NCBI RefSeq assembly: GCF_002696735.1 | Contig: NZ_NZSL01000019.1 | Strand: one strand, 5' to 3' | DNA: 24,000 bases | Source: Methylophaga sp. | Lineage (GTDB): Bacteria; Pseudomonadota; Gammaproteobacteria; Nitrosococcales; Methylophagaceae | Shown here: positions 3,558-22,191 of the stretch, one piece after another | Position numbering within the stretch: the first letter of the stretch is position 1 | Layout: each line of letters starts with the position of its first letter | The notes under the pieces: generated by a model | The model's database searches: none | Told to the model about the DNA's origin: nothing | The model's input: only the letters and a program-made list of their open reading frames with translations | Position numbers and translations under genes: made by a program

Positions 3558-4061
3558 ATGTCAGAAAAATATATTGAAATTGAAATGAAGCCTAAAGCTG
3601 GGAGAAGAGTTAAGCCTGCTCATGTTACAAAATACTCAACGCCACTGCCAACTCCCGAAGAAATAATGATAAGTGTTGGATTTTCTACCAATAATAAACT
3701 GCAACTTATTCAGCAAATAAGACGAGGTGTAGCAGTTTCTTCGCTATATGCACTGGCCGATAGACTAAGCATTGGCGTGAATGAAATGAATGAGATAGTC
3801 AATATTTCAGCAAGAACATTTACCAGAAGAAAGCGTGAAGGTGTGCTTCACGCCGATGAAACGGAACGCGTTTACCGACTTGCTGATCTCATGGCTAGAG
3901 CAACCGAAGTGCTGCATAGTAATGAAGATGCACAGCATTGGCTCAAAACTCCCAAAAAAGCATTGGGAGGTGAAACGCCTCTGAAACTGGCTGATACAGA
4001 ATTAGGAGCGAAAGAGGTTAAAGACTTACTGGGTAGAATTGAGCATGGTGTCTTTTCATGA
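3558..4061 (+). CDS. Xre/ParS/MbcA-type antitoxin (DUF2384 toxin-binding domain)
   Basis: The C-terminal half (TFTRRKREGVLHADETERVYRLADLMARATEVLHSNEDAQHWLKTPKKALGGETPLKLADTELGAKEVKDLLGRIEHGVF) matches the DUF2384 pattern. GGGG precedes the ATG. The stop overlaps the toxin start (ATGA). Confidence 0.85.
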   Translation: MSEKYIEIEMKPKAGRRVKPAHVTKYSTPLPTPEEIMISVGFSTNNKLQLIQQIRRGVAVSSLYALADRLSIGVNEMNEIVNISARTFTRRKREGVLHADETERVYRLADLMARATEVLHSNEDAQHWLKTPKKALGGETPLKLADTELGAKEVKDLLGRIEHGVFS

Positions 4062-4567
4062 CAGACATTACTGCTGTCCGAATTATTCAAAATCAATTAG
4101 CTTCAAAAACAGAGGTGATCAACGGTATTAAAGTTCCTGCAGCATTTACTGGAGAAGGTTCTAGAAAGTTTGGAGGAAGATGGAATTCTATTGGGACTCC
4201 AATAGTTTACACAGCTGGTACTCAGTCTTTGGCAATCTTAGAAGTTGTTGTTCATGTTGAATCTGAAAGACTGTTAGAGCACTATTCATTGTTTGAGGTA
4301 AGCTTCGATCAAAGTCTTGTATTAGAGCTTTCGCTCGATAGTTTGCCTGAAGATTGGCAGAGTGACCCAGCAGCGGAATCGACTAAAGTAATCGGTGATC
4401 AGTGGGTAAAACAAGCAGATTCTCTTATTCTACAGGTGCCAAGCACTATCGTTAGCGATACACCAAACTACATCATCAATCCTTATCATCCAAATTTAAA
4501 CAAGCTCAATATTATTGGGCCTATACCTTATCCCATTGATCCTAGAATTAAGCAGACCCGTTCTTAA
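4058..4567 (+). CDS. RES-domain toxin (NAD+-targeting, Res/MbcT/ParT family)
   Basis: GGRWNSIGTPIVYTAGTQSLAILEVVVH and LQVPS supply the R-E-S signature. The gene has a 4-nt overlap with the upstream DUF2384 antitoxin. Confidence 0.85.
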   Translation: MTDITAVRIIQNQLASKTEVINGIKVPAAFTGEGSRKFGGRWNSIGTPIVYTAGTQSLAILEVVVHVESERLLEHYSLFEVSFDQSLVLELSLDSLPEDWQSDPAAESTKVIGDQWVKQADSLILQVPSTIVSDTPNYIINPYHPNLNKLNIIGPIPYPIDPRIKQTRS

Positions 4568-5742: not shown

Positions 5743-6672
5743 TTAATCATCACAAGGTCCGAATATTTCAATTCCTGAACGAGCTGTTAAAGGTAATTGG
5801 CCGCAGTCTTCTATATCCGAGCGTCTTAGTTCAAAGCTATCCCCTATTAAGCTCATTTGATAAAACGAAATGTCACGGGGTTTAAGTGCATTCATAACAG
5901 CATGAATGACAGATAACGAGCATCGTAGACCAAAGATAATTTCCACTAAACATAGAGGAGAATCTTGTATGCCTACTTCTCCTATTAATCGCCACTCTTG
6001 TTCATATTGCCAAGGTTCAGCTTTACGTAAGAGTGTGTTTTGATCTAAGGCTTTCTGAGCTTGTATATCATGATGTAAAACTGCTTTAGCAATTAGACTG
6101 GTCTTGATTGTTCTTGCACCTCCATAAAGCACTTTATGAAGTGATGGTTCAGGGTTTCTATTTAATGAATAACCCACACAAAACCCTTTATGCTGGTCAC
6201 CATAATGACTCCAGAGTATGGGGTTAGAGTACTCAGCTGAAAAGCAGCATATACCACGGTTATTTTGCTTTAAAAGTTCGCTATGTATTCCATGGTGAAA
6301 CATCCCACATTCCGCCTCTTCAACCGAGCAAGTGTAGTCCGGATTAGTAGCGTAATGCTCAATCCTTCTTAGTTCATTTTCGGATGACTGCTGTGCTTGT
6401 TCTTTAGCACGTGAGTTACTAATTTTATCGGTGAGATTGGTTGCTTGAAGAGAGTTTGTTACTTCTTTTTCGACTCTTTTCTGTATTAATGAGCTTAGTA
6501 TTTGTCTTAATGTTTCTCTATCTGAGTCTCGCTCTACAGCTGGATTACAGTCCAGTGGGTCATTAAAATTTGTAGGATCGGAAAAATATAGCTGGTCATG
6601 GCATAAGGCATCAAGGGAAAGGGCATTGAATGCTTGATATCGATAAATGATTTCAGGGTTGCTTTCTCTCAT
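5743..6672 (-). CDS. DUF2971-family protein (309 aa)
   Basis: IYRYQAFNALSLDALCHDQLYFSDPTNFNDPLD ... PILWSHYGDQHKGFCVGY ... KVLY ... PWQYEQEWRL matches my memory of the DUF2971 motif series. Confidence 0.75.
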   Translation of the reverse strand: MRESNPEIIYRYQAFNALSLDALCHDQLYFSDPTNFNDPLDCNPAVERDSDRETLRQILSSLIQKRVEKEVTNSLQATNLTDKISNSRAKEQAQQSSENELRRIEHYATNPDYTCSVEEAECGMFHHGIHSELLKQNNRGICCFSAEYSNPILWSHYGDQHKGFCVGYSLNRNPEPSLHKVLYGGARTIKTSLIAKAVLHHDIQAQKALDQNTLLRKAEPWQYEQEWRLIGEVGIQDSPLCLVEIIFGLRCSLSVIHAVMNALKPRDISFYQMSLIGDSFELRRSDIEDCGQLPLTARSGIEIFGPCDD

Positions 6673-6821: not shown

Positions 6822-6968
6822 TTATGCGGTTCTGTCACTATGTTTGTCTTTGTGCTTACGCTTCTCATCTACTCTGGTTGCATAGTTACCAAGGCAAATG
6901 AAAAACGCTAAAATTAGAACAGCACCTATTACTAATTCCGGCTTTATGTATTCTAAAATAGTCATCAT
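6822..6968 (-). CDS. Small membrane protein A2 (48 aa; one TM plus a basic tail). Not in the supplied ORF track.
   Basis: MMTILEYIKPELVIGAVLILAFFICLGNYATRVDEKRKHKDKHSDRTA. The start AUGAUGA overlaps the A1 stop and lies behind GGAGGAAAUGA. The architecture matches B2 at 16933-17031. Confidence 0.6.
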   Translation of the reverse strand: MMTILEYIKPELVIGAVLILAFFICLGNYATRVDEKRKHKDKHSDRTA

Positions 6969-7150
6969 TCATTTCCTCCGTCTCTAAACTTAATACCATA
7001 GTAAATCAAAACGCCTCCCAACAATATAGCAATGAAAGCGCTAGCCAGTGATTCACCACTATTAGCAAATGCTAACCCGATGAAACCTGCAGTAATGACA
7101 TTGGTGCCTACCTTAATGGAAGCTTCACCTGCGTCTTTCCTCATAGACAT
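6965..7150 (-). CDS. Small two-TM membrane protein A1 (61 aa)
   Basis: MSMRKDAGEASIKVGTNVITAGFIGLAFANSGESLASAFIAILLGGVLIYYGIKFRDGGNE. GGAGAA lies 6 nt before the ATG, directly after the structured leader. Confidence 0.65.
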   Translation of the reverse strand: MSMRKDAGEASIKVGTNVITAGFIGLAFANSGESLASAFIAILLGGVLIYYGIKFRDGGNE

Positions 7151-7335
7151 TCTCCGAAAATAAAAAAGGGAGAATGCCCCCTGAAGGGAATTCTCCCTTC
7201 AGGGTTGAGGTTAACTGCGTCCGTAGAAGCAGCAACATTATGTAAGATACCAACCGTAGTCAGTATCCGTTGAGCACAGCGTTAAAGCAGCTGTGGCACT
7301 TCAGGTACTTGAGTAATCAAGTACGCAGAATCAAT
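7151..7335 (-). promoter_or_regulatory. Structured 5' leader, copy A (five hairpins plus a terminator/antiterminator-like 3' end)
   Basis: See findings. Hairpins: GUACUUGA/UCAAGUAC, CACAGC/GCUGUG, AUACUGAC-UACG-GUUGGUAU and CCCUGAAGGGA-GAAU-UCCCUUCAGGG. The alternative pairing is GGGAGAAU...AUUCUCCC followed by U6. Copy A is paralogous to 17235-17430 and 19255-19460. Confidence 0.7.
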
Positions 7336-7341
7336 GACTTA

Positions 7342-7350
7342 ATAATAACA
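7342..7350 (-). promoter_or_regulatory. Extended -10 promoter element of leader A (TGtTATTAT)
   Basis: It aligns column-for-column with the -10 hexamers of copies B (TAATAT) and C (TATTAT), at the same distance from hairpin P1. The -35 element is weak. Confidence 0.45.
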
Positions 7351-7510
7351 TAATCCGCTTTTTACAGCATCTCTTGGCCTCCTGTTCATACTTGCGTGAT
7401 CACAAAGCTGGGATAACCTTAAATCTGGTATTCAGCCATAGTGAGTTAGTGGAGAATTAATAAAAGAACTTGAAGAACAATTTAGCTTTACACCCGCCAG
7501 CACGTCCCCC

Positions 7511-8414: not shown

Positions 8415-8669
8415 ATGAGAAAGGTAAGTGCCGTCTTGTCTTCAGTGACTATTGGTATTACAGAGCTTAAGCGTAATCCGATGGTTGTTGTCGACGAATC
8501 AGATGGGGAAACTGTTGCTGTTTTAAACAGGAACAAAGCGGTGTTTTATGCGGTTCCCGCGGAAGCGTATGAGGCAATGATTGAGCGGCTGGAAGATGCA
8601 GAACTTGCTGCCCTTGTGCGTGCGAGGGAGCAACAGCCTCGTATAGAAGTGGATTGGGATGACCTATAG
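8415..8669 (+). CDS. stbD: Phd/YefM/StbD-family antitoxin
   Basis: ITELKRNPMVVVDESDGETVAVLNRNKAVFYAVPAEAYEAMIERLEDAELAALVRAREQQP is the classic StbD/YefM fold pattern. The gene overlaps the relE start by 11 nt. Confidence 0.85.
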   Translation: MRKVSAVLSSVTIGITELKRNPMVVVDESDGETVAVLNRNKAVFYAVPAEAYEAMIERLEDAELAALVRAREQQPRIEVDWDDL

Positions 8670-8946
8670 TTTAAGATTTACTGAAGACTCCAAGAAGGAA
8701 TGGGACAAGCTTGATGCGGGGATCAGAAAGAAGCTCGCAAAAAAGTTGAAAGATCGGCGTGAAAACCCTCGGGTACCGTCGGCGAAGCTTGTTGGAATGA
8801 AAGATTCATACAAGATAAAGCTTAGAGATGATGGTTATCGACTGGTCTATACGGTTGTTGATGAAACCATCACCATCGATGTAATTACTGTTGGTAAGCG
8901 TAATAAAAACTTAGTTTATAAGAAAGCATTAAAGCGAATAGGATAA
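8659..8946 (+). CDS. relE: RelE/StbE-family mRNA-interferase toxin
   Basis: MTYSLRFTEDSKKEWDKLDAGIRKKLAKKLKDRRENPRVPSAKLVGMKDSYKIKLRDDGYRLVYTVVDETITIDVITVGKRNKNLVYKKALKRIG aligns along its whole length with E. coli RelE as I remember it (LDFDERALKEWRKL...YKIKLRSSGYRLVYQV...VGKRERSEVY). Confidence 0.9.
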   Translation: MTYSLRFTEDSKKEWDKLDAGIRKKLAKKLKDRRENPRVPSAKLVGMKDSYKIKLRDDGYRLVYTVVDETITIDVITVGKRNKNLVYKKALKRIG

Positions 8947-9755: not shown

Positions 9756-10130
9756 ATGAAAGAAGTCCAAGCGATTAATGCCTTTGCGGCAATTTCTCAA
9801 GAGACAAGACTTCGTATTATCCGGTTACTGGTGGTAACAGGAGCCAATGGATTGGCGGCGGGTGAGATAGGAAGCTCGCTCGGCGGTGTGCCATCGTCTC
9901 GGCTCTCTTTTCACCTCAGCCAGCTTGAACATGCTGGCCTCGTCGAAAAGCGACGAGAGGGACGCTCAATCATTTACAGCGCTATTTTCCCAGCACTGTC
10001 TGATCTCGTTGCGTTTCTAATGCACGACTGCTGTCAGGGTCACTGTGCCTACTGTGATAAAGCCATTGAGCTGTTTTCCAAGTGCGAAGGACGACCTACA
10101 TCAACTGAAAATGTGAACTTAAAAAAATGA
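9756..10130 (+). CDS. ArsR/SmtB-family metalloregulator with a C-terminal Cys cluster
   Basis: The winged HTH reads AISQETRLRIIRLLVVTGANGLAAGEIGSSLGGVPSSRLSFHLSQLEHAGLVEKRREGRSIIY. The C-terminal DCCQGHCAYC resembles the C-terminal As(III) site type of Acidithiobacillus ArsR rather than the helix-3 CVC site. Confidence 0.85.
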   Translation: MKEVQAINAFAAISQETRLRIIRLLVVTGANGLAAGEIGSSLGGVPSSRLSFHLSQLEHAGLVEKRREGRSIIYSAIFPALSDLVAFLMHDCCQGHCAYCDKAIELFSKCEGRPTSTENVNLKK

Positions 10131-11047
10131 TCCGATTAATTTCTTTCGTTGAATCCCATCTTGTGTGGTTCGTCATTGTTGTCGCTGGAATGGGATTAAT
10201 AATCCCTGAAACAGGAATATTCCTTGAGCCCTCTATTGGGTTATTACTGGCGTTGCTGATGCTCGTTATCAGCTTGACCTTCGATGCGCACGATGTACGG
10301 CTAGTACTTCGTAAGCCATCAAGACAGTTTTTGGCACTGGGTCTGGTCTATGGACCAATGTCGATCGCCGGATGGCTGACTGGCCGCCTATTTTTTGGGA
10401 GCGGCCCGCTGGCTGCTGGCCAAACCTTGCTTGGCACCCTGCCAACGGATGTTTCCTCTCCTCTTCTAGTGTTGATGGCGAGAGGCAATGTAGCGCTAGC
10501 TGCCGTTTTTAATGCAGTCAACACGGCGTTATCTCCGTTTATAGTTCCTTTCTTGTTTTTATCGCTGACAGGCATACAACTGGAGGTTCCTCTTGGCTCG
10601 ATTATCCTCGAATTGGTGCTGATTGTCCTCATTCCTACCGTCTTGGGTGTGAGCTTGCGTACAGGATTTCCGAAATTTTTTGCAAGGCATGATTCAGCTT
10701 ATGCGGGGCTTGGTTCAATTATATATCTCCTGATACTTCTCGCTGTGGTAGGTCCGAACGCAGAAACAATCATTGGTTATGGTTGGTACGCTTTTGTAAT
10801 TGCTGGAGCGGCCCTATGTCTAAACCTGATTGGCTACTTAGTAGGAATGGCTGCACGATTGCTAACCACTGATCGCAAAGAGGTAATCACATATCTATTT
10901 ACCGTGAGCAAAAAGGAATTCAGCATTGCTGCTGCCTTTGTAGCCGCATCCGGCCTGCCATCAGAAATAGCGATTCCAGCCACGTTTTTTGCAGTGATTC
11001 AAATGATTACCTCACCTATTGCGGCCAAGATTCTCGCAAGGGGCTGA
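10127..11047 (+). CDS. BASS/SBF (bile acid:Na+ symporter superfamily) permease, possibly a metalloid transporter
   Basis: 306-aa polytopic ORF. GTLPTDVSSPLLVLMARGNVALAAVFNAVNTALSPFIVPF fits the SBF signature region. It is translationally coupled to the ArsR gene (ATGA overlap). Confidence 0.7.
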   Translation: MIRLISFVESHLVWFVIVVAGMGLIIPETGIFLEPSIGLLLALLMLVISLTFDAHDVRLVLRKPSRQFLALGLVYGPMSIAGWLTGRLFFGSGPLAAGQTLLGTLPTDVSSPLLVLMARGNVALAAVFNAVNTALSPFIVPFLFLSLTGIQLEVPLGSIILELVLIVLIPTVLGVSLRTGFPKFFARHDSAYAGLGSIIYLLILLAVVGPNAETIIGYGWYAFVIAGAALCLNLIGYLVGMAARLLTTDRKEVITYLFTVSKKEFSIAAAFVAASGLPSEIAIPATFFAVIQMITSPIAAKILARG

Positions 11048-11079
11048 GAGCCTCTGGAGAAACGACTTAAGAAATTTTT

Positions 11080-12456
11080 ATGACTAGTCTACCTGTCAAT
11101 GTGTTGCAACTTAACAAGTATGACGTTTGGAATATTAAAGAGAGTGAGCATGACTATCATTTCCAAGTGGAAGCTAAAACTCCTATTGCTTGCGAGGAAT
11201 GCGGCGTAGAAGGTGAGTTCGTCAGGTTTGGAAAGCGTGATGTCGCCTATCGGGACCTCCACATTCATGGCAAACGGGTTACCCTCTGGGTAGTACGTCG
11301 CCGTTACACGTGCCGGGCCTGCGGCAAGACGTTTCGGCCCGCGCTCCCGGACATGGCGGATGACCATCGCATGACTCGCCGGCTATACAGCTACGTTGAA
11401 AAAAAGGCTTTCAATCACCCCTACGCCTATGTAGCCGATACCACGGGCCTCGATGAGAAGACCATACGCGACATCTTCAAGAAGAAGGCTGAGTTCCTGG
11501 CGATTTGGCACCGCTTCGAGACACCCCGCTGCCTGGGTATCGACGAGCTGTACCTGAACCGCCGCTACCGCTGCATCCTGACCAACTTGGAGGAGCGCAC
11601 CCTGTTGGACCTGTTGCCCGGTCGTCAGCAGGACGCGGTGACGAAGCGGCTCATGAGCATGACCGAGCGTGACAAGGTCGAGATCGTCAGTATGGATATG
11701 TGGAAGCCCTACCGCCGTGCCGTCCAGGCGGTGCTGCCACAGGCCCGCATCGTGGTCGATAAGTTCCATGTTGTGCGTATGGCCAACGAAGCCCTGGAAA
11801 AGATCCGCAAGGGGCTCAGGAAGGAGCTGACGGCCAACCAGCGACGAACCCTCAAGGGTGACCGGAAGATCCTGCTGAAGCGGGCTCACGACGTTTCAGA
11901 CCGCGAGCATCTCATCATGGAAACATGGACAGGGACCTTCCCCCAGCTCCTGGCAGCCTACGAGCACAAGGAGCGGTTCTACCACATCTGGGACTGTGCC
12001 ACCCGGCGTGATGCCGAGAAGGCACTGGCTGCCTGGATTGACGACATCCCGCAGGGACAGAAGAAAGTCTGGAAGGATCTTGTCAGCGCCGTCAGCGAAT
12101 GGCGTGAGGAGATGCTCACCTACTTCGAGACCGACATCCCGATCACCAACGCCTTCACGGAGTCGATCAATCGGCTGGCCAAGGACAAGAACCGCGATGG
12201 CCGGGGCTACTCATTCGAAGTGATGCGGGCCCGGATGCTATATACCACCAAGCACAAGAAGAAGGCGCCGCAGACCAAGCAATACCCCTTCCTGGGCAGG
12301 GCTACCATGACCTACAACATGGGCCTGCCCGATCCCGAGCAGAACTTCGGCGTCGATCTATCAACCTTCTGGCAGGACTATGCATTTGGATGGGTTTCAG
12401 TGCCCCTTCAACCAGTTAATCCGGATACCCATAGTTATTTGAGTGTTTTAATCTAG
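11080..12456 (+). CDS. tnpA: ISL3-family transposase
   Basis: N-terminal zinc ribbon (CEECG...YTCRACGKTF) and a DDE_Tnp_ISL3 core (LGIDELYL..., VSMDMWKPYRRAV, VVDKFHVVRMANEAL, TNAFTESINRLAKDKNRDGRGY). The ORF reads through the right inverted repeat and stops 26 nt outside the element. Confidence 0.92.
   Translation: MTSLPVNVLQLNKYDVWNIKESEHDYHFQVEAKTPIACEECGVEGEFVRFGKRDVAYRDLHIHGKRVTLWVVRRRYTCRACGKTFRPALPDMADDHRMTRRLYSYVEKKAFNHPYAYVADTTGLDEKTIRDIFKKKAEFLAIWHRFETPRCLGIDELYLNRRYRCILTNLEERTLLDLLPGRQQDAVTKRLMSMTERDKVEIVSMDMWKPYRRAVQAVLPQARIVVDKFHVVRMANEALEKIRKGLRKELTANQRRTLKGDRKILLKRAHDVSDREHLIMETWTGTFPQLLAAYEHKERFYHIWDCATRRDAEKALAAWIDDIPQGQKKVWKDLVSAVSEWREEMLTYFETDIPITNAFTESINRLAKDKNRDGRGYSFEVMRARMLYTTKHKKKAPQTKQYPFLGRATMTYNMGLPDPEQNFGVDLSTFWQDYAFGWVSVPLQPVNPDTHSYLSVLI
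12404..12430 (-). repeat. Right inverted repeat of the ISL3-family element
   Basis: The reverse complement GGGTATCCGGATTAACTGGTTGAAGGG matches the left inverted repeat. From memory, it resembles the GGGTATCCGGA-type ends of ISPpu12-like elements. Confidence 0.8.
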
Positions 12457-16932: not shown

Positions 16933-17031
16933 TTAGTCTTTACGGTGCTTTTTGTGTTCCTGATAATAAGCAATCGAGAACACTATAGCGCACACAAGAA
17001 AAATGATGCCAGAAGCTATTGTGAGGTTCAT
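16933..17031 (-). CDS. Small membrane peptide B2 (32 aa; TM plus basic tail). Not in the ORF track.
   Basis: AAGGAGGAGG, 5 nt, then ATG: MNLTIASGIIFLVCAIVFSIAYYQEHKKHRKD. The start overlaps the stop of the upstream frame (AAUGA). It resembles the A2 tail EKRKHKDKH. Confidence 0.6.
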   Translation of the reverse strand: MNLTIASGIIFLVCAIVFSIAYYQEHKKHRKD

Positions 17032-17234
17032 TTTTCCTCCTCCTTCGTTTTAGGTTTTTCAGAACATGGTGCCTCAATTATACCAAGGAGCCAGGTACAT
17101 ACTGAAAACATTATTGGCCAAATAAAATCGCTAAATCATTTGTCATTGACCAGCACACTAATCAAAGCAGCAAGAAATACAGCAATAGCTATTTTCCTGA
17201 TGTCATCTTGTACCGATTTAAAGTTAAGCCTCAT
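17028..17234 (-). pseudogene. B1: a 68-codon small-membrane-protein frame with an in-frame TGA at codon 33
   Basis: MRLNFKSVQDDIRKIAIAVFLAALISVLVNDK, then TGA (17136-17138), then FSDFIWPIMFSVCTWLLGIIEAPCSEKPKTKEEEK. Its position and its coupling to B2 are the same as for A1/A2. Confidence 0.5.
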
Positions 17235-17430
17235 AGGCACTCTCCAAATAAAAAAGGGAGAACGCCGCCCCTGAAAGGAGAAACATTCTCCCTTCAGGGT
17301 TGAGGTAATCTGCCACCTTAGTAACAGTTACATTTTGCAGGATACTAACCGAAGTTAGCATCTATTGAGCACAGCATTTAAGCAGCTGTGGCACTTCAGG
17401 TACTTGAATACTCAAGTACGCAGAATCTGT
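17235..17430 (-). promoter_or_regulatory. Structured 5' leader, copy B
   Basis: It aligns with copy A along its whole length, with long identical blocks (e.g. the 44-nt run GATTCTGCGTACTTGA-to-CTGCTT, interrupted only by three changes in the P1 loop). P3 becomes GAUGCUAAC-UUCG-GUUAGUAUC. The terminator-like pairing is GGGAGAA...UUCUCCC plus U6. Confidence 0.7.
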
Positions 17431-17466: not shown

Positions 17467-18693
17467 TTACCCCTTGAGTACAATTACTCTATCAGTAGAT
17501 ATGCCTTTAATCGGTCCCTCATCTTGTATGGCACCTATTAGACGCAGCTCGTTTAGAAGGTCTGAAGGACTGTCCGTGTAGCTTCTGAATGTAGTGGGGT
17601 ATTTCACTTTTATGGTATTGCCTTCCTGCTTGGCATATTCGGACGTGATACGTTTCTTTTGAATATCCACCTTGAGTCTGGCCACAAAGTTTTTCGCAGT
17701 GATTTCGTCATCATGCTCTGGCGGATAATCATCAATATTCTGTGGTGGTTCTTCCATCTCAGGTGGCATGGAGTCTATTTGATTTGACGGTATAGGCTCT
17801 ACTGGAGCGTGACTGCTTTGTTTCGGAGCTGGTTCTTTTGCTGCTTGTTGTGGTTTAACAGGCGTGGTTTTAATGAATTCACCAGTCTCTTTGTCAATCT
17901 GCTCACTTGATGGGGCCGGATTGTCTCTAGGTTTGTTGGCCTTTTCGGCTTGGATCAGTGCTGCTTCAAAAGAGATTTCATCACGCAAAGTAGATGTGGC
18001 TCTGACAATGATCGAGTACAACGGATTGTCTTGGATTTTATGGCCACCCGCTAGAATATCTAACATGCAGTCCATAAGCTCATGGTCACCATATATCCAC
18101 TCAATGCCTTCTGTGGGGACAATATCCCTGATATGAAGTACGGTGCTTGTATAGGACAGTGAGCGTGTAATCCCTGGTACTTTTCTCATGCGATAATGAT
18201 TGAATTCATCGATACGGTGTTTCCAGCACTGCCACTCACCGGCAGGTTTATCATTTTTGGCAAAGCCAATGATCTTCACACCCAGCATTTGCCCACCAAA
18301 GTCTCGAAGGAGTGCGGCAACAAATAAGCCATATGTCCAACACTCACCTCGATGTGATATTTCCTCTGGCTTACATTTTAGTGGCAGCAGTGTTCCCAGT
18401 CGAAGCTTTAAGGTCAATGCTACACGCTTAATAGCAACTTCAATTGCGCCACCCTTTTTTGCGTACTCCCCTTCATGACCAAACGGACGAAGCTGAAGCA
18501 TTTCTGCCAGACGCTCTATTGCCGGCAAGTAATAGCTATCAAAATATGCTCGTGTACAACCGGCATCATTGCGGATCTTTTTAATCAGCAATGAATGAGG
18601 GGCAAGTAGGTCTTTAGCAGTAAGAAATGGGATTCCATCAGCAGGAATAGATGTTGATGGTGCTAGTAAAGTGGTTTTTCGACGGCCAAACAT
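17467..18693 (-). CDS. TraI_2/MOBH-relaxase-like protein (408 aa), with apparent substitutions in the catalytic motifs
   Basis: GGAGAA precedes the ATG at 18693, and the longer track ORF would run through a terminator. The N-terminal ~250 aa align, from memory, with the ICE relaxase family PFL_4751/TraI_2 (LLAPHSLLIKKI...YLPAIERLAEMLQLRPF...GGAIEVAIKRVALTLKLR...ECWTYGLFVAALLRDFGG). A P/Q/E-rich linker and a small C-terminal domain follow. Confidence 0.55.
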   Translation of the reverse strand: MFGRRKTTLLAPSTSIPADGIPFLTAKDLLAPHSLLIKKIRNDAGCTRAYFDSYYLPAIERLAEMLQLRPFGHEGEYAKKGGAIEVAIKRVALTLKLRLGTLLPLKCKPEEISHRGECWTYGLFVAALLRDFGGQMLGVKIIGFAKNDKPAGEWQCWKHRIDEFNHYRMRKVPGITRSLSYTSTVLHIRDIVPTEGIEWIYGDHELMDCMLDILAGGHKIQDNPLYSIIVRATSTLRDEISFEAALIQAEKANKPRDNPAPSSEQIDKETGEFIKTTPVKPQQAAKEPAPKQSSHAPVEPIPSNQIDSMPPEMEEPPQNIDDYPPEHDDEITAKNFVARLKVDIQKKRITSEYAKQEGNTIKVKYPTTFRSYTDSPSDLLNELRLIGAIQDEGPIKGISTDRVIVLKG

Positions 18694-18793
18694 GGATTTC
18701 TCCGTAGAGTAGTTCGGCAAATTTAGATGGTTGTGCGAGAAATGTGTAGGTTTAACCGGATATTGATCGATGCCGGTTATGTTTCCGTGAGGC

Positions 18794-18824
18794 AAAAAAA
18801 GCCTCACTTCAATGAAGTGAGGCT
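18794..18824 (-). terminator. Rho-independent terminator after the 140-aa gene
   Basis: Minus-sense AGCCUCACUUCA-U-UGAAGUGAGGCU followed by UUUUUUU. Confidence 0.75.
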
Positions 18825-18831
18825 GGCTTGT

Positions 18832-19254
18832 CTACAGGTATTGTAGCTTTTTAACATCGAACGTTACCGATGCAGGTTCAAATCTTGGAGATTCAACCGG
18901 AATACCACTTCCATTAATTTTCTCGATTTTGTACCAGGCATGCTGGCTGTCATCGAAAAAGTGCGAAAGACGTACTTTTTTCCCTAGCTTATTCATACAT
19001 ACGGTCGTGTTGTAACTAAACTCACTCAAATCGCCTTCAGGCTTCCAAGTAGTTATGTTCCGTGACGGTTGCAACAAGGCAGGGAGATTACGACTTAACA
19101 ACAACTTAAATGGCACAAAAAACATTCTCGACATTACCGTTTGGTGTGTGTCGGGATCATATTTACCTTGTCGTTGAAGTGAGGCGATTACTTTTTGGTC
19201 GTAGCAAAAAACAAAAAAGGCAATCGCCAGTAACGTAGGAATAATATCTTGCAT
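18832..19254 (-). CDS. Hypothetical N-terminally anchored membrane protein (140 aa)
   Basis: The N-terminal TM segment is IIPTLLAIAFFVFCY. GAGGAGAAAGAAAG precedes the ATG. It lies directly downstream of leader copy C. Confidence 0.65.
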   Translation of the reverse strand: MQDIIPTLLAIAFFVFCYDQKVIASLQRQGKYDPDTHQTVMSRMFFVPFKLLLSRNLPALLQPSRNITTWKPEGDLSEFSYNTTVCMNKLGKKVRLSHFFDDSQHAWYKIEKINGSGIPVESPRFEPASVTFDVKKLQYL

Positions 19255-19460
19255 CTTTCTTTCTCCTCAAAGTGATAAATACAACCCATAGAGAAAGATC
19301 GCCCCCATAAGGAGAGATAAATCCCCTTATGGGTTGATGCTATCCACGCTTCCTTGGAAGCGTGGTTATTAGATTACAACCGGTCATTGAACGGATGTAA
19401 TTGAGCGCAACGTATAGTGGTTGCGACACTTCTCGCAGCTAATGTATTAGCTACAAAGAT
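19255..19460 (-). promoter_or_regulatory. Structured 5' leader, copy C (divergent)
   Basis: Same hairpin order as A and B, with compensatory changes: P1 GUAGCUAA/UUAGCUGC, P2 CGCAAC/GUUGCG, P4 CCACGCUUCC-AA-GGAAGCGUGG, P5 CCCAUAAGGGGA/UCUCCUUAUGGG. The single-stranded GAAGUG, CUCAA and UCAACCC are conserved. Confidence 0.6.
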
Positions 19461-19466
19461 AGGATG

Positions 19467-19495: not shown

Positions 19496-19717
19496 GCTGA
19501 TGCCATGCTGCAATGAGTCAAAAGTATGAACCGATAGACACTTGTTTAAGAGCTTTTTACTTATTGTGCGCTCATTACTTGCGCTATTAGAAAAGCGTTA
19601 TAGACTTAATGTAAGTTCATCCTGAGTTAAAACGGACATCTTGGTGCATCTTCCTTGGCATACATGTCTTTTTAGTTGCTCCATGCACGGGTGAGAACAA
19701 CAAAAAAGGACCTAAAA

Positions 19718-20242
19718 ATGCCAATTATAGATATGCTTCTTTTAGCGATAATTTTTACAGCTGGATTTGCCGTTGTATCAGTCTGGTTGTCAATGCTTTA
19801 CTTTAAAGTGACTCGCGGTGCAGATGAGCTAACAATTCCGTTCAAAGCAAGAGGCTTTGTTAAATATTTGCCTATCGTTACCATGTTATTAACCTTTGTC
19901 TGGTCTTTCTTGCTACATACTGAGATTTCTAGAGACCTTTTGAAAGGTATGGCTTGGTTTTCAGTTGGATTATTAATTCTCCAAGTTATGTTGGTATTAA
20001 TGACATTACTGAGTGTAGATTGCCGTCAAAGAGCCAGAGAATCAGTTGAAGGTCGCGTAGTTCATTATTTGCTTATTGCCACCGTCATCTCAGCATCTTT
20101 TGCTTGGAAGGCTTTCGCATGGTTTCTACGTCTTGCTGCGAGCACAAGGTCAGCTCGTTACAATGGTGGCTCACCTTACGGATATCATGGTTATGAATCA
20201 TACGAAGATAAATCACGTCGTATCAATGGAGGCCCTTACTAG
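19718..20242 (+). CDS. Hypothetical polytopic membrane protein (174 aa from ATG 19718)
   Basis: AAAGGA, 7 nt, then ATG: MPIIDMLLLAIIFTAGFAVVSVWL..., with four hydrophobic segments. The 14-codon TTG extension in the track is unlikely. Confidence 0.65.
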   Translation: MPIIDMLLLAIIFTAGFAVVSVWLSMLYFKVTRGADELTIPFKARGFVKYLPIVTMLLTFVWSFLLHTEISRDLLKGMAWFSVGLLILQVMLVLMTLLSVDCRQRARESVEGRVVHYLLIATVISASFAWKAFAWFLRLAASTRSARYNGGSPYGYHGYESYEDKSRRINGGPY

Positions 20243-20257: not shown

Positions 20258-21823
20258 TTATTTTGTTACCGCGTTTTTAGCCATCTCTGTACCCTGATTA
20301 CCTGCACCTTTAGCTTCATTGCCTGCTGCAGTTGATGCAGAGCTAGCTGCGCTAGCGCCACGCTCTCCACCCCACCCTAGAATAGATAGAAAGTAGTAAG
20401 GCAGTGCCATGTAGAGCGCTAAAACTAATAGGTCAATGATTGAGTCAAGCATCCAGTTTTGATGACTGAGCATTTCATGAATAAAGTTAGAATCACGCGC
20501 GCCGAGTATAACCTGCTGAAGATTGCTATCTAAAAAGTCTGTAACTGCCCATATAGTAGTCCAGAATTTAATTGCGAATATTGTAATTGTTGCAGTCTTA
20601 ATAGTGCTCCAGGAGTAGTTACCAACCAGTAAAACCCAAGGGAGTAAGAAGTACGTCGCCATAAGCATTGTTGCTTGTATGTAAGGTGCCATCTGTTTCA
20701 CCATAAAAACTGCTGGCTGTATGAGAACTTCAGCAACCTTTGCTCCTGCTGTACCTGCTGTTCCTCCAAATACATCTCCAGCAAGGTCAAGTGCAGACAT
20801 AGATAAAATATCACCTAGACCTATATCAATAGTGGTGCTACCACCAACATTGAGTCCATCATAAATAGATTTACCTTCGTTTCTTAGCATCTCGCGAATG
20901 GCTGCATTCTCTAGTTCATCTGACGAAGAGAATGCCATAGTGCCAAATCTATCCCATATAGAAGCTGGGAATTCTTCTGAAAGCCCCTCCCTTATCCCTA
21001 CTGAACTATCATTCCACCATTCGTGACAGCTAGGATATCCATTTTGAGGTGTAACGTTGTTTTGGTTTGCAGTTGCATGTGCATTATCACTCTGCCGATT
21101 TGTGTCAAACTCAAAACCAGAAACAGGATGCTTTGCATATTCAGTTTGGTAGAAATTATTATTGAAATATTGAGAGCCCGGCCATGCTATGTCTGTAACG
21201 TCAATACTGTCGGGCAATTCTCTATGATTATTATAGAAATCAGCTACCGCAGGTTTAAAGCATTCCGTCACAAAGCGTTGTGTTTGACGTTTAAGATGTG
21301 GATCAGATATGAGAATAGTAGATAGTTCATATTCCACCTGACGCATGTTAATCTCACAAGGCAGTCTAGTTATAACAGCATCGTTAATACCTCCCGACAC
21401 TGACATAACGATATAAAACCATGGTGGTACTTTCGCTTCCTGATTATTTAGTAAGTTAGGTTTAAATATCTCATCAAATCGAGTTCCCGAGTTTCCAGCA
21501 GTCACGGTACTGCCCGGTGTGCCTGATTCAGTTTGGCATGCCTTTGTGTAACTGATTGCACCGTACTGAATAGTCATATACGGTGACACAGCGAGCATCA
21601 TCATGATAATCAAACGGATTATATCTATCTCTACACGTCTGAGTGATGTTACGGCTGCTGCTTTGGCTTCCTGGCTCTCAATCGGTTTAACAACATTGTC
21701 AATGATTACAGCAAAAAATGGTAAATAAGCAAGTCCAGTACTAGATATGACCCCCCATACGATCTCGTATAAATGCCACCCGAAAGTGGTCATAAACATT
21801 TCAATAAAGCTACCTGTTGACAT
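20258..21823 (-). CDS. traG: TraG-N-domain conjugal transfer membrane protein (ICE/MPF_G type, 521 aa)
   Basis: The start MSTGSFIEMFMTTFGWHLYEIVWGVISSTGLAYLPFFAVIIDNV matches the N-terminus typical of ICE TraG-N proteins. There are multiple TM segments and a large periplasmic middle domain. The gene follows the PFL_4711-like gene and a small membrane gene, as in PFGI-1/ICEclc-type clusters (from memory). Confidence 0.75.
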   Translation of the reverse strand: MSTGSFIEMFMTTFGWHLYEIVWGVISSTGLAYLPFFAVIIDNVVKPIESQEAKAAAVTSLRRVEIDIIRLIIMMMLAVSPYMTIQYGAISYTKACQTESGTPGSTVTAGNSGTRFDEIFKPNLLNNQEAKVPPWFYIVMSVSGGINDAVITRLPCEINMRQVEYELSTILISDPHLKRQTQRFVTECFKPAVADFYNNHRELPDSIDVTDIAWPGSQYFNNNFYQTEYAKHPVSGFEFDTNRQSDNAHATANQNNVTPQNGYPSCHEWWNDSSVGIREGLSEEFPASIWDRFGTMAFSSSDELENAAIREMLRNEGKSIYDGLNVGGSTTIDIGLGDILSMSALDLAGDVFGGTAGTAGAKVAEVLIQPAVFMVKQMAPYIQATMLMATYFLLPWVLLVGNYSWSTIKTATITIFAIKFWTTIWAVTDFLDSNLQQVILGARDSNFIHEMLSHQNWMLDSIIDLLVLALYMALPYYFLSILGWGGERGASAASSASTAAGNEAKGAGNQGTEMAKNAVTK

Positions 21824-21828
21824 AGTGT

Positions 21829-22191
21829 TTAACTCATCAATCGTGCTGGTACGGCTTCGACTACGACAAACTCGAAGGCGATTATAAATACGGCTACACG
21901 CCAACGCATTGCTTGGGCTCTTTGTATTTGAACATCATCAAAACCTTTGGCTTTTCCATACAATTCAGCAATCTGATCCCAGAACATAATTACTGCACCA
22001 AGAAATCCCCATCGTATATATCGTGCTACAGATTCAAAGCTACTCATGGTTTGTACAAAGTAGGCCACTTCTTGATGTGTCTGTGCAGCTACATTTAGCA
22101 GTCCAAGAATAACTATTAGAGCGACAGTAATACCTGCTAACCACAGCAATGACTTTTTAAGAAAACGACGTGATCTACTTATTATGGCCAT
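21829..22191 (-). CDS. Small T4SS-associated membrane protein (120 aa)
   Basis: Three hydrophobic segments. TAATG overlap with the upstream gene, and the stop lies 5 nt before the traG start. Confidence 0.7.
   Translation of the reverse strand: MAIISRSRRFLKKSLLWLAGITVALIVILGLLNVAAQTHQEVAYFVQTMSSFESVARYIRWGFLGAVIMFWDQIAELYGKAKGFDDVQIQRAQAMRWRVAVFIIAFEFVVVEAVPARLMS

Follow-up and report, generated by a model that had tools for sequence, protein, structure and literature searches.

The hok, tisB and aapA1 mRNAs, which encode type I toxins, have a locked ribosome-binding region and a base-paired 5' end. In the repZ (IncIα/IncB) and rpoS-type leaders, an inhibitory helix occludes the ribosome-binding site (RBS) and is opened by a pseudoknot or by a small RNA (sRNA). 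What is known about the regulation of conjugative elements concerns mainly transcription and antisense RNAs. Here, we describe a structured leader of about 190 nucleotides (nt) that occurs three times (copies A, B and C) in a 24,000-nt stretch of DNA from Methylophaga sp. (contig NZ_NZSL01000019.1 of RefSeq assembly GCF_002696735.1), hereafter called the window. The leader is a portable promoter-and-leader cassette placed before three unrelated small membrane-protein genes of a Methylophaga-type conjugative element, which has an MPF_G-type type IV secretion system and a TraI_2/MOBH relaxase. We consider it rather probable that it functions as a bistable cis-regulatory mRNA leader, in which the Shine–Dalgarno (SD) sequence and the AUG are locked by default and exposed by a conserved alternative fold. 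With one structured leader reused before three unrelated membrane-protein genes, these genes would form a compact post-transcriptional regulon, and the leader itself would be a new orphan cis-regulatory RNA.

Distribution and fold of the leader family

A first-pass annotation of this DNA had placed three copies of the leader on the minus strand; all three were found at those positions (Table 1) and can be aligned over about 200 nt. Copies A and B also form a direct repeat of 158 nt with 82% identity, and a degenerate core pattern of 28–29 nt occurs three times in the window, while 0.00 occurrences were expected from 100 shuffles. Relatives were gathered from four sources. Loci fetched from two Methylophaga plasmids were searched with nhmmer and two covariance models, and three Methylophaga genome contigs, contigs encoding homologues of the 140-amino-acid (aa) protein encoded after copy C, and the results of a single metagenome-wide pattern scan were then added. 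The family comprises 41 copies, 37 of them distinct, found in Methylophaga plasmids and genomes and in metagenome contigs, several of which come from Tara Oceans marine samples. In all copies the position of the leader is constant, with a conserved promoter before it and a start codon after it, and the cargo is always one of three types of open reading frame (ORF), designated A (59–64 aa, beginning MRKDxGE), B (61–68 aa, MRLNxK) and C (133–142 aa, MQDIIPTLL).

True matches to the covariance models scored at least 90 bits and were separated by a clear gap from the noise; no divergent or intermediate-scoring copies were detected with the second model. A relaxase-based genome scan recovered only Methylophaga, a BLAST search of PLSDB with copy A returned only Methylophaga plasmids, the element being present in just two plasmids of that database, and a scan of viral contigs gave 0 leader matches. 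No matches to Rfam 15 were obtained for the whole window at gathering thresholds, and in the E-value mode (E ≤ 10) nothing below E = 0.9 was found for copies A, B and C, all scores being far under the gathering thresholds. These empty searches agree with the first-pass annotation, in which the fold was not recognised as a described RNA family. The annotation had also proposed a covariance model as a check; such models were among the means by which the 41 copies were found, and compensatory pairs are present. The leader represents a previously uncatalogued, lineage-restricted RNA family.

The sigma-70-like promoters end 5–12 nt ahead of the first helix, and the −35/−10 pair is kept at a fixed spacing from the leader across relatives. 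Such a promoter had been assigned to each of the three leaders. It was detected by the scan for copies B and C, whereas a consensus sigma-70 scan detected no promoter directly upstream of copy A, where only a weaker site could be recognised by eye; this CTGTAA-17-TATTAA arrangement is conserved among A-type orthologues. Since the −35/−10 pair is conserved at a fixed distance, the leader region is very probably transcribed from just upstream of its first helix, P0/P1.

All three copies fold much better than shuffled sequences (z = −7.8, −6.0 and −7.8 for A, B and C, respectively). Hairpins P1 to P5 are present in the minimum free energy (MFE) folds exactly as first described, and three helices absent from that description were identified: P0, P6 (anti-SD:SD) and P7, which involves the start codon. 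In the 37-sequence alignment fitted to the model, 86.9% of the cells of the full structure are paired, versus about 45% when the partners are slid, and 32 pairs are changed on both sides, versus 21±2 in shuffles, none of 500 of which reached 32.

In the 5' half, P0 is formed by the 5' UUCU and the GAA of the invariant linker GAAGUG and lengthens P1 to within a few nt of the 5' end; in the resulting helix 1 (P0/P1), 8 of the 14 pairs are changed on both sides and 89% of the cells are paired. P1, P2, P3 and P4 contain several compensatory pairs each, and P3 and P4 end in C(YNMG)G tetraloops, so that P4, initially taken for a merely variable hairpin, is a conserved hairpin with a defined loop. 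The AGUG of the linker may pair with the 5' side of the P2 loop in a hypothetical H-type pseudoknot, which is 97% compatible with the alignment and shows one-sided changes only. As to the suggested competition of the linker CCUGAAG for the 3' arm of P5, the complementarity exists in A/B-type copies but does not extend to C-type copies.

In the 3' domain, helices P6 and P7 were independently predicted in the MFE fold of every subtype. P6 pairs the SD region with an anti-SD segment. In the A/B-type copies 97.8% of its cells are paired, including a compensation from C-G to U-A, and family-wide 7 of its 9 pairs are changed on both sides; compensatory changes outside the SD core include AUUCUCC/GGAGAAU, GUUCUCC/GGAGAGU, GUGUU../..AAUAU and UCUUUCUC/GAGAAAGA. 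P7 is formed by the pentamer just 5' of P5 and the start-codon region, and is re-registered with each cargo gene: CCUCA:UGAGG in copy A, and GCAUC:GAUGC, CCAUC:GAUGG and CCAUU:AAUGG in C-type copies. Because P7 follows the start region of each ORF in this way, we read it as a sign of selection for occluding the start codon as such. The functional start of copy A is the ATG located 7 nt after GGAG, and the orthologues begin with MRKD at this position (7144), not at the ATG at 7150 at which leader A had originally been taken to end. In the full-length RNA the locked state is a clear ground state, the energy of the 3' domain being −36 to −41 kcal/mol. In the predicted folds, the three-way junction P7[P5,P6] hides both the SD and the start codon and would thereby block ribosome initiation by default.

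The strand to which this structure belongs can be recognised from the wobble positions. Read on the gene-sense strand, the proposed pairs comprise 216 G·U and 49 A·C cells overall, and 109 and 7, respectively, in the well-aligned P0–P4 part. Given this excess of G·U and the participation of the SD and AUG in the fold, the structure is assigned to the mRNA-sense strand. This bears on another explanation, raised as an alternative in the first-pass annotation, according to which the repeats are single-stranded DNA (ssDNA) elements of a conjugative leading region, that is, Frpo-type promoters or ssi priming signals repeated before early genes. Frpo ssDNA promoters carry their −35 and −10 hexamers within a long imperfect hairpin, where complementary segments pair with them (PMC11541004). 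Dispersed repeats of about 200 nt, in a single orientation, near a relaxase gene and in front of genes, do resemble the Frpo elements of F and ColIb-P9 (PMC11541004), and the template strand (7120–7420, plus), folded as DNA, is also more stable than shuffled sequences (z = −4.0, as expected of any hairpin-rich region). However, the template strand, which Frpo activity requires, would have mismatches wherever the sense strand has G·U. Moreover, the hairpins do not include the promoter hexamers, which are situated upstream of P0/P1 and show no pairing in the centroid structure of the template DNA, while P6 and P7 involve and covary with the SD and the start codon, which is sensible only in mRNA. 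We therefore reject the ssDNA explanation as highly improbable.

The alternative hairpin and regulatory models

A second hairpin, termed ALT, shares its 5' strand with P5. In the A/B-type copies it is formed by the 5' arm and loop of P5 and by the anti-SD with its flank; 99.4% of its cells are paired in 15 sequences, it is the MFE structure of transcripts cut before the SD, and U6-7 follows directly. The pairing of GGGAGAAU with AUUCUCCC beside the U6 tract, noticed at the outset, indeed exists, and a consensus scan found terminator-like sites at the A/B-type ALT hairpin. In the C-type copies ALT is built from other sequences, CAACCCAUA·GGGGA pairing with UCUC·UAUGGGUUG; in 13 sequences, 86% of the cells are paired and 5 pairs are changed on both sides. 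Among 500 shuffles none equalled the C-type ALT in doubly changed cells or in covariation score, and 8 reached its pair count. In the divergent copies L009 and L050 the shared 5' arm is changed to CUAGAGGGGA, and both of its partners are changed too. The mutually exclusive pairings around P5 that had been proposed for copy A are thus conserved in every subtype. Because ALT overlaps the anti-SD, it excludes P6 as well as P5, and in the predicted fold it leaves both the SD and the AUG free.

As long as the SD has not been transcribed, the two folds differ little in energy, the values for P5 and ALT being −21.7 and −21.9 kcal/mol in copy A, −23.8 and −26.4 in copy B, and −26.1 and −24.7 in copy C. 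The barriers between them, calculated along direct paths and hence upper bounds, are 17–25 kcal/mol. When the growth of the transcript was simulated, ALT was the MFE structure only for 12–27 nt before the SD emerged; after that, the locked state was favoured by 1.6–14 kcal/mol.

The first-pass annotation had described the 3' end as a terminator/antiterminator. The description applies to copies A and B and to their relatives, but not family-wide: copy C, several C-type relatives and L097, the most divergent A-type copy, have no U-tract, and it is absent or weak in L010c as well, although ALT is kept in all of them. Some other C-type copies (L003c, L092c and L065c) have U7 after ALT. Since the U-tract is lacking in part of the family while ALT is kept, termination is an optional add-on, and the output shared by all copies would be how accessible the ribosome-binding region is.

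These data allow one to weigh the explanation that the leader is a transcription attenuator or riboswitch, in which P5 is the antiterminator, ALT with the U-tract is the terminator and P1–P4 sense a ligand or protein, so that an RNA of about 170 nt would alternate with the full-length mRNA. The A/B-type ALT hairpin, being the MFE structure of the nascent RNA with U6-7 and scored terminator-like sites, fits it well, as do the U7 tracts of the three C-type copies, the conservation of the P2/linker module, and the near-equal energies of P5 and ALT separated by a high barrier, which resemble riboswitch expression platforms. However, besides the U-tracts missing where ALT persists, the read-through state with P5, supposed to be the ON state, continues into the covarying P6/P7 lock of the SD and AUG, so that antitermination alone would give no protein. 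In addition, the 5' half consists of independent hairpins in series and lacks the multi-helix junction typical of aptamers, and Rfam similarity is lacking even at E ≤ 10. Attenuation as the main function of the leader therefore appears fairly unlikely.

The opposite possibility is that nothing switches and the leader is a constitutive damper and stabiliser, the 5' stem making the mRNA long-lived and the lock holding translation at a fixed, very low level, with ALT being no more than an intermediate of folding or a terminator that leaks. In favour of this, the full-length RNA clearly has the locked state as its ground state, the promoters look constitutive, and the searches for a sensor or partner described below turned up none. 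Nevertheless, ALT is kept in all subtypes, in different sequences and with compensatory changes that track the shared arm, and its near-equality in energy with P5 before the SD is hard to explain unless two states have been selected for; a damper also leaves the invariant linker and the P2 loop unexplained. We regard this explanation as unlikely.

Several observations nonetheless weigh against a bistable leader. The family is narrow, representing one element lineage at about 70–100% identity; a small number of subtype splits accounts for much of the covariation, and for related sequences the shuffle control gives an inflated significance. Both arms of the A/B-type ALT are invariant, and ALT is backed there by compatibility and not by covariation, while in L097, the most divergent copy, ALT never becomes the MFE structure in simulated transcript growth. 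Both states of the A/B-type leaders look OFF, being either terminated or locked, and an extra assumption, such as read-through of ALT or later unlocking, would be needed. Finally, the lock could act as a constitutive translation damper for membrane proteins, with no switching at all.

Under the bistable model that we prefer, the nascent leader would first form the P0/P1 helix, the P2 module with the invariant linker GAAGUG, and the tetraloop hairpins P3 and P4. P5 would be completed before its competitor is transcribed, and P6 and P7 would follow, so that the default product would be a full-length, 5'-protected but untranslatable mRNA, presumably stabilised by the 5'-terminal helix. For expression, a trans-acting input would then have to steer folding towards ALT or to open the lock. 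Candidates for this input are a protein, an sRNA, a metabolite and RNA processing, and the conserved P0–P2 module or P5 would most plausibly read it. Folding into ALT would switch C-type copies ON, and in A/B-type copies it would result in termination or, after read-through, also in the ON state.

The search for the input gave the following results. No antisense promoters were detected within the leaders by scan. Promoter-like sites inside ORF2 of the A and B cassettes (6886–6914 and 16939–16967, both on the plus strand) were considered as antisense promoters and dismissed, since only the closest relatives have them. No 11-mer complementary to any leader was found elsewhere in the window, which speaks against a trans-encoded complementary RNA located there. 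No ligand signature was found, and the hypothetical proteins of the element gave no Pfam signal for RNA-binding domains. A conserved leader peptide is absent, in agreement with the first-pass annotation. In B-type copies an AUG inside P5 opens a 20-codon frame across the lock, but this upstream ORF is absent from copy A, from the L002b/L006b variants and from C-type copies, and was rejected as a general mechanism.

CsrA was also examined as a possible effector. Leaders under CsrA/RsmA control show GGA motifs in hairpin loops and a further one at the SD. The apex of P4 often reads A(C/A)GGA; the GG of its C(YNMG)G tetraloop is partly in the stem, several subtypes have GGU, and the motif is absent in the L002b type. 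In two divergent relatives, L007 (6336–6551) and L097 (4577–4780), the A-type cassette has two genes immediately upstream, a CsrA-family gene (PF02599) and then a NERD-domain gene, which makes csrA the second gene upstream of it. The window contains no csrA, nor do those parts of the two Methylophaga plasmids that were fetched, and conservation of the GGA loops is lacking. CsrA is therefore not favoured as the effector and is kept only as a lead, since csrA neighbours the cassette in L007 and L097.

A tentative and less likely possibility is that the leader is a new class of RNA switch peculiar to conjugative elements. Its conserved P0–P2 pseudoknot module could sense a trans signal of transfer or establishment (an RNA-binding protein encoded by the element or the host, a small RNA or a metabolite) and flip the platform, turning on co-ordinately an exclusion-like membrane protein encoded next to TraG/TraI and two pairs of tiny membrane peptides. 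To our knowledge, a post-transcriptional regulon of this kind has not been described for integrative and conjugative elements (ICEs) or plasmids.

Cargo genes and genomic context

The coordinates of the leaders, their helices and the neighbouring genes are listed in Table 1. The window is 98.8% identical to a 320-kb plasmid of Methylophaga thalassica and holds the end of an MPF_G-type (ICEclc/PAPI-1/SPI-7-like) transfer module. The gene order starts with TraG_N, a divergent membrane ORF, leader C with the 140-aa ORF and its own terminator, and traI. Leader B with two tiny overlapping membrane ORFs and a terminator comes next, followed by a ParM-like gene and an integrase; then, after insertions, leader A with two tiny membrane ORFs and a terminator.

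Table 1. Positions of the leader copies, their structural elements and neighbouring features in the window (TM, transmembrane)
Feature	Position	Strand	Details
Leader copy A	7332-7139	minus	covariance-model match 7133-7332
Copy A putative -10	7344-7339	minus	TATTAA, by eye; weak -35 CTGTAA 17 nt upstream
Copy A P0/P1	7297-7330	minus	UUCUG..GUACUUGA-UUAC-UCAAGUAC..CUGAA, then invariant linker GAAGUG; in MFE fold
Copy A P2	7275-7295	minus	CACAGC-UGCUUUAAC-GCUGUG; 100% paired, 3 covarying pairs
Copy A P3	7247-7266	minus	AUACUGAC-UACG-GUUGGUAU; UNCG-type loop, tandem G·U pairs; 5/8 pairs changed on both sides
Copy A P4	7215-7232	minus	C(UACG)G tetraloop; 4/6 pairs covary, 91% of cells paired
Copy A P5	7179-7204	minus	CCCUGAAGGGA-GAAU-UCCCUUCAGGG; 5' arm common to both alternative folds; MFE fold
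Copy A ALT hairpin	7200-7190 : 7175-7165	minus	GAAGGGAGAAU : AUUCUCCCUUU, then UUUAUUUU; looks like intrinsic terminator
Copy A P6	7177-7169 : 7155-7147	minus	anti-SD GCAUUCUCC : SD region GGAGAAUGU; loop is U-rich tract 7168-7156; MFE fold
Copy A P7	7210-7206 : 7143-7139	minus	CCUCA : UGAGG; covers UG of ATG 7144-7142; closes three-way junction P7[P5,P6]
Copy A ORF1	7144-6965	minus	59 aa; two hydrophobic segments
Copy A ORF2	6969-6823	minus	48 aa; overlaps ORF1; one TM segment and basic tail
Copy A cassette terminator	6796-6766	minus	intrinsic
Leader copy B	17427-17232	minus	covariance-model match 17223-17427
Copy B leader up to ATG	17427-17235	minus	ATG 17234
Copy B promoter	17465-17437	minus	TTGCCA-17-TAATAT; sigma-70-like scan
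Copy B P5	17299-17269	minus	architecture as in A
Copy B anti-SD	17266-17257	minus
Copy B U-tract	17256-17246	minus
Copy B SD	17245-17236	minus
Leader copy C	19462-19251	minus	covariance-model match 19243-19462
Copy C leader up to ATG	19462-19255	minus	ATG 19254
Copy C promoter	19495-19467	minus	TTGATT-17-TATTAT; sigma-70-like scan
Copy C P5	19333-19304	minus
Copy C anti-SD	19298-19290	minus
Copy C SD	19266-19258	minus
Copy C P7	19340-19336 : 19255-19251	minus	GCAUC : GAUGC
Copy C ALT 3' strand	19289-19282	minus	AUGGGUUG; U-tract absent
C-type cargo	18832-19254	minus	140 aa; predicted N-terminal TM helix and small beta-sheet domain (AlphaFold2, AF2, pLDDT 77)
Strong intrinsic terminator	18800-18824	minus	11-bp stem and T7; between 140-aa ORF and traI
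TraI_2/MOBH relaxase	17467-18807
TraG_N	20258-21904
Xre/MbcA-type antitoxin and RES toxin	3558-4567
Phd/RelE pair	8415-8946
DUF2971 protein	5743-6672
IS3-family integrase-core ORF	2035-2847
ArsR/SBF-transporter pair and ISL3 transposase	9756-12456

Pfam and NCBIfam searches assigned none of the three cargo ORF types to a family, nor ORF2 of cassette A, and the families of their homologues are tiny, with 12 and 3 clusters among 5.8 billion proteins. No PDB fold match was obtained for the predicted structure of the 140-aa C-type cargo. Its gene is placed just after the TraG_N gene and before traI, a position that, as we speculatively take it, recalls those of the entry-exclusion genes eex of SXT and traS of F. 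Since a terminator separates this ORF from traI, the C cassette is probably monocistronic, and traI would need its own promoter. A conserved multi-TM ORF (19676–20242, plus strand; 150–190 aa) with no family assignment is transcribed divergently from the leader-C promoter in all relatives examined.

In four metagenomic relatives, L019 (5989–6908), L079 (199–1133), L092 (105–1041) and L114 (687–1618), the A-type cassette lies directly downstream of the C-type ORF; therefore, cassettes consisting of the promoter, leader and ORF move within the element. In L043 (1914–2118), an A-type ORF is preceded by a leader having the B-type P5 (GAAUGUUUCUCC), which suggests recombination or gene conversion between paralogous leaders.

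ORF1 of cassette B (17136–17234, minus strand) contains an in-frame TGA that shortens it to 32 aa, while the near-identical L034 and L040 read TCA and encode 68 aa; with this stop, the small protein of the B type has probably lost its activity in this plasmid. Many addiction- and defence-like genes surround copy A in the accessory region. The stretch with the ArsR/SBF/ISL3 genes (9756–12456) appears to break the synteny between the integrase region and the A cassette that is seen in relatives.

The nature of the cargo brings up another explanation, a type I toxin-like module of the hok/mok kind, in which small hydrophobic and possibly toxic peptides are encoded by an inert, stable mRNA that processing activates or an unstable RNA antitoxin controls, in the service of plasmid maintenance. 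The A/B cassettes are self-contained, each having a promoter, a leader, two tiny overlapping membrane ORFs (the second with one TM segment and a basic tail) and a strong terminator, and are carried by plasmids among type II toxin–antitoxin loci, RES/Xre and Phd/RelE. The locked ribosome-binding region and the base-paired 5' end would also fit, as would the interruption of B-type ORF1 in the window but not in its near-identical metagenomic copies. On the other hand, the same leader precedes the 133–142-aa protein whose gene adjoins that of the relaxase. An antisense promoter is not conserved, given the restricted occurrence of the ORF2 sites, and neither a complementary 11-mer elsewhere in the window nor a match to the hok/sok-type families of Rfam was found. 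On balance, a type I module seems improbable.

Relation to known regulatory systems

The small and well-defined family, with 37 distinct sequences, two cultivated hosts carrying complete plasmids, M. thalassica IOM01 (NZ_CP143310.1) and M. pinxianii TMB1265 (NZ_CP095734.1), and clear-cut predictions for mutants, makes the question of what flips the switch directly testable. If the small ORFs are toxic, the cassettes would represent a type I-like module with no obvious antisense partner. The significance of the leader is limited by its narrow distribution, confined to marine Methylophaga-type elements, and by the fact that the principle, SD sequestration combined with an alternative hairpin, is already familiar.

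Among the systems compared, riboswitch and attenuator platforms share with the leader a strand that has two mutually exclusive partners, nearly isoenergetic nascent folds, of which one abuts a U-tract and the other has an anti-SD:SD helix, as well as covarying stems and conserved linkers. Unlike them, the leader has no recognisable aptamer or Rfam similarity, its antiterminated fold is locked, and the U-tract is optional.

The Frpo and ssi elements are likewise repeated structured elements, of 200–300 nt, which precede genes near the transfer origin and relaxase in one orientation. The Methylophaga leader differs in being optimised for the gene-sense strand, in having its promoter hexamers outside the hairpin, and in including the SD and AUG in the fold.

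With regard to type I toxin mRNAs (hok/mok/sok, tisB, aapA1/IsoA1 and zorO), no antisense or trans-encoded RNA was found for the leader, its lock lies entirely inside the leader with no 5'–3' fold-back of the whole mRNA, it also precedes a protein of about 140 aa, and there is no similarity at the level of sequence or covariance models. Common to both are a long structured 5' untranslated region that sequesters the SD, a paired 5' end, small hydrophobic overlapping ORFs that are probably translationally coupled, and a plasmid location near addiction modules.

The repZ and rpoS-type leaders differ from the leader described here in that the latter has neither a repY-like peptide nor an Inc-type antisense RNA, and its possible pseudoknot is far from the RBS and has one-sided support. 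In both cases, however, an RBS-occluding helix is the default state of a long leader and a loop pseudoknot, here between the linker and the P2 loop, is possible; repZ, moreover, is also plasmid-borne.

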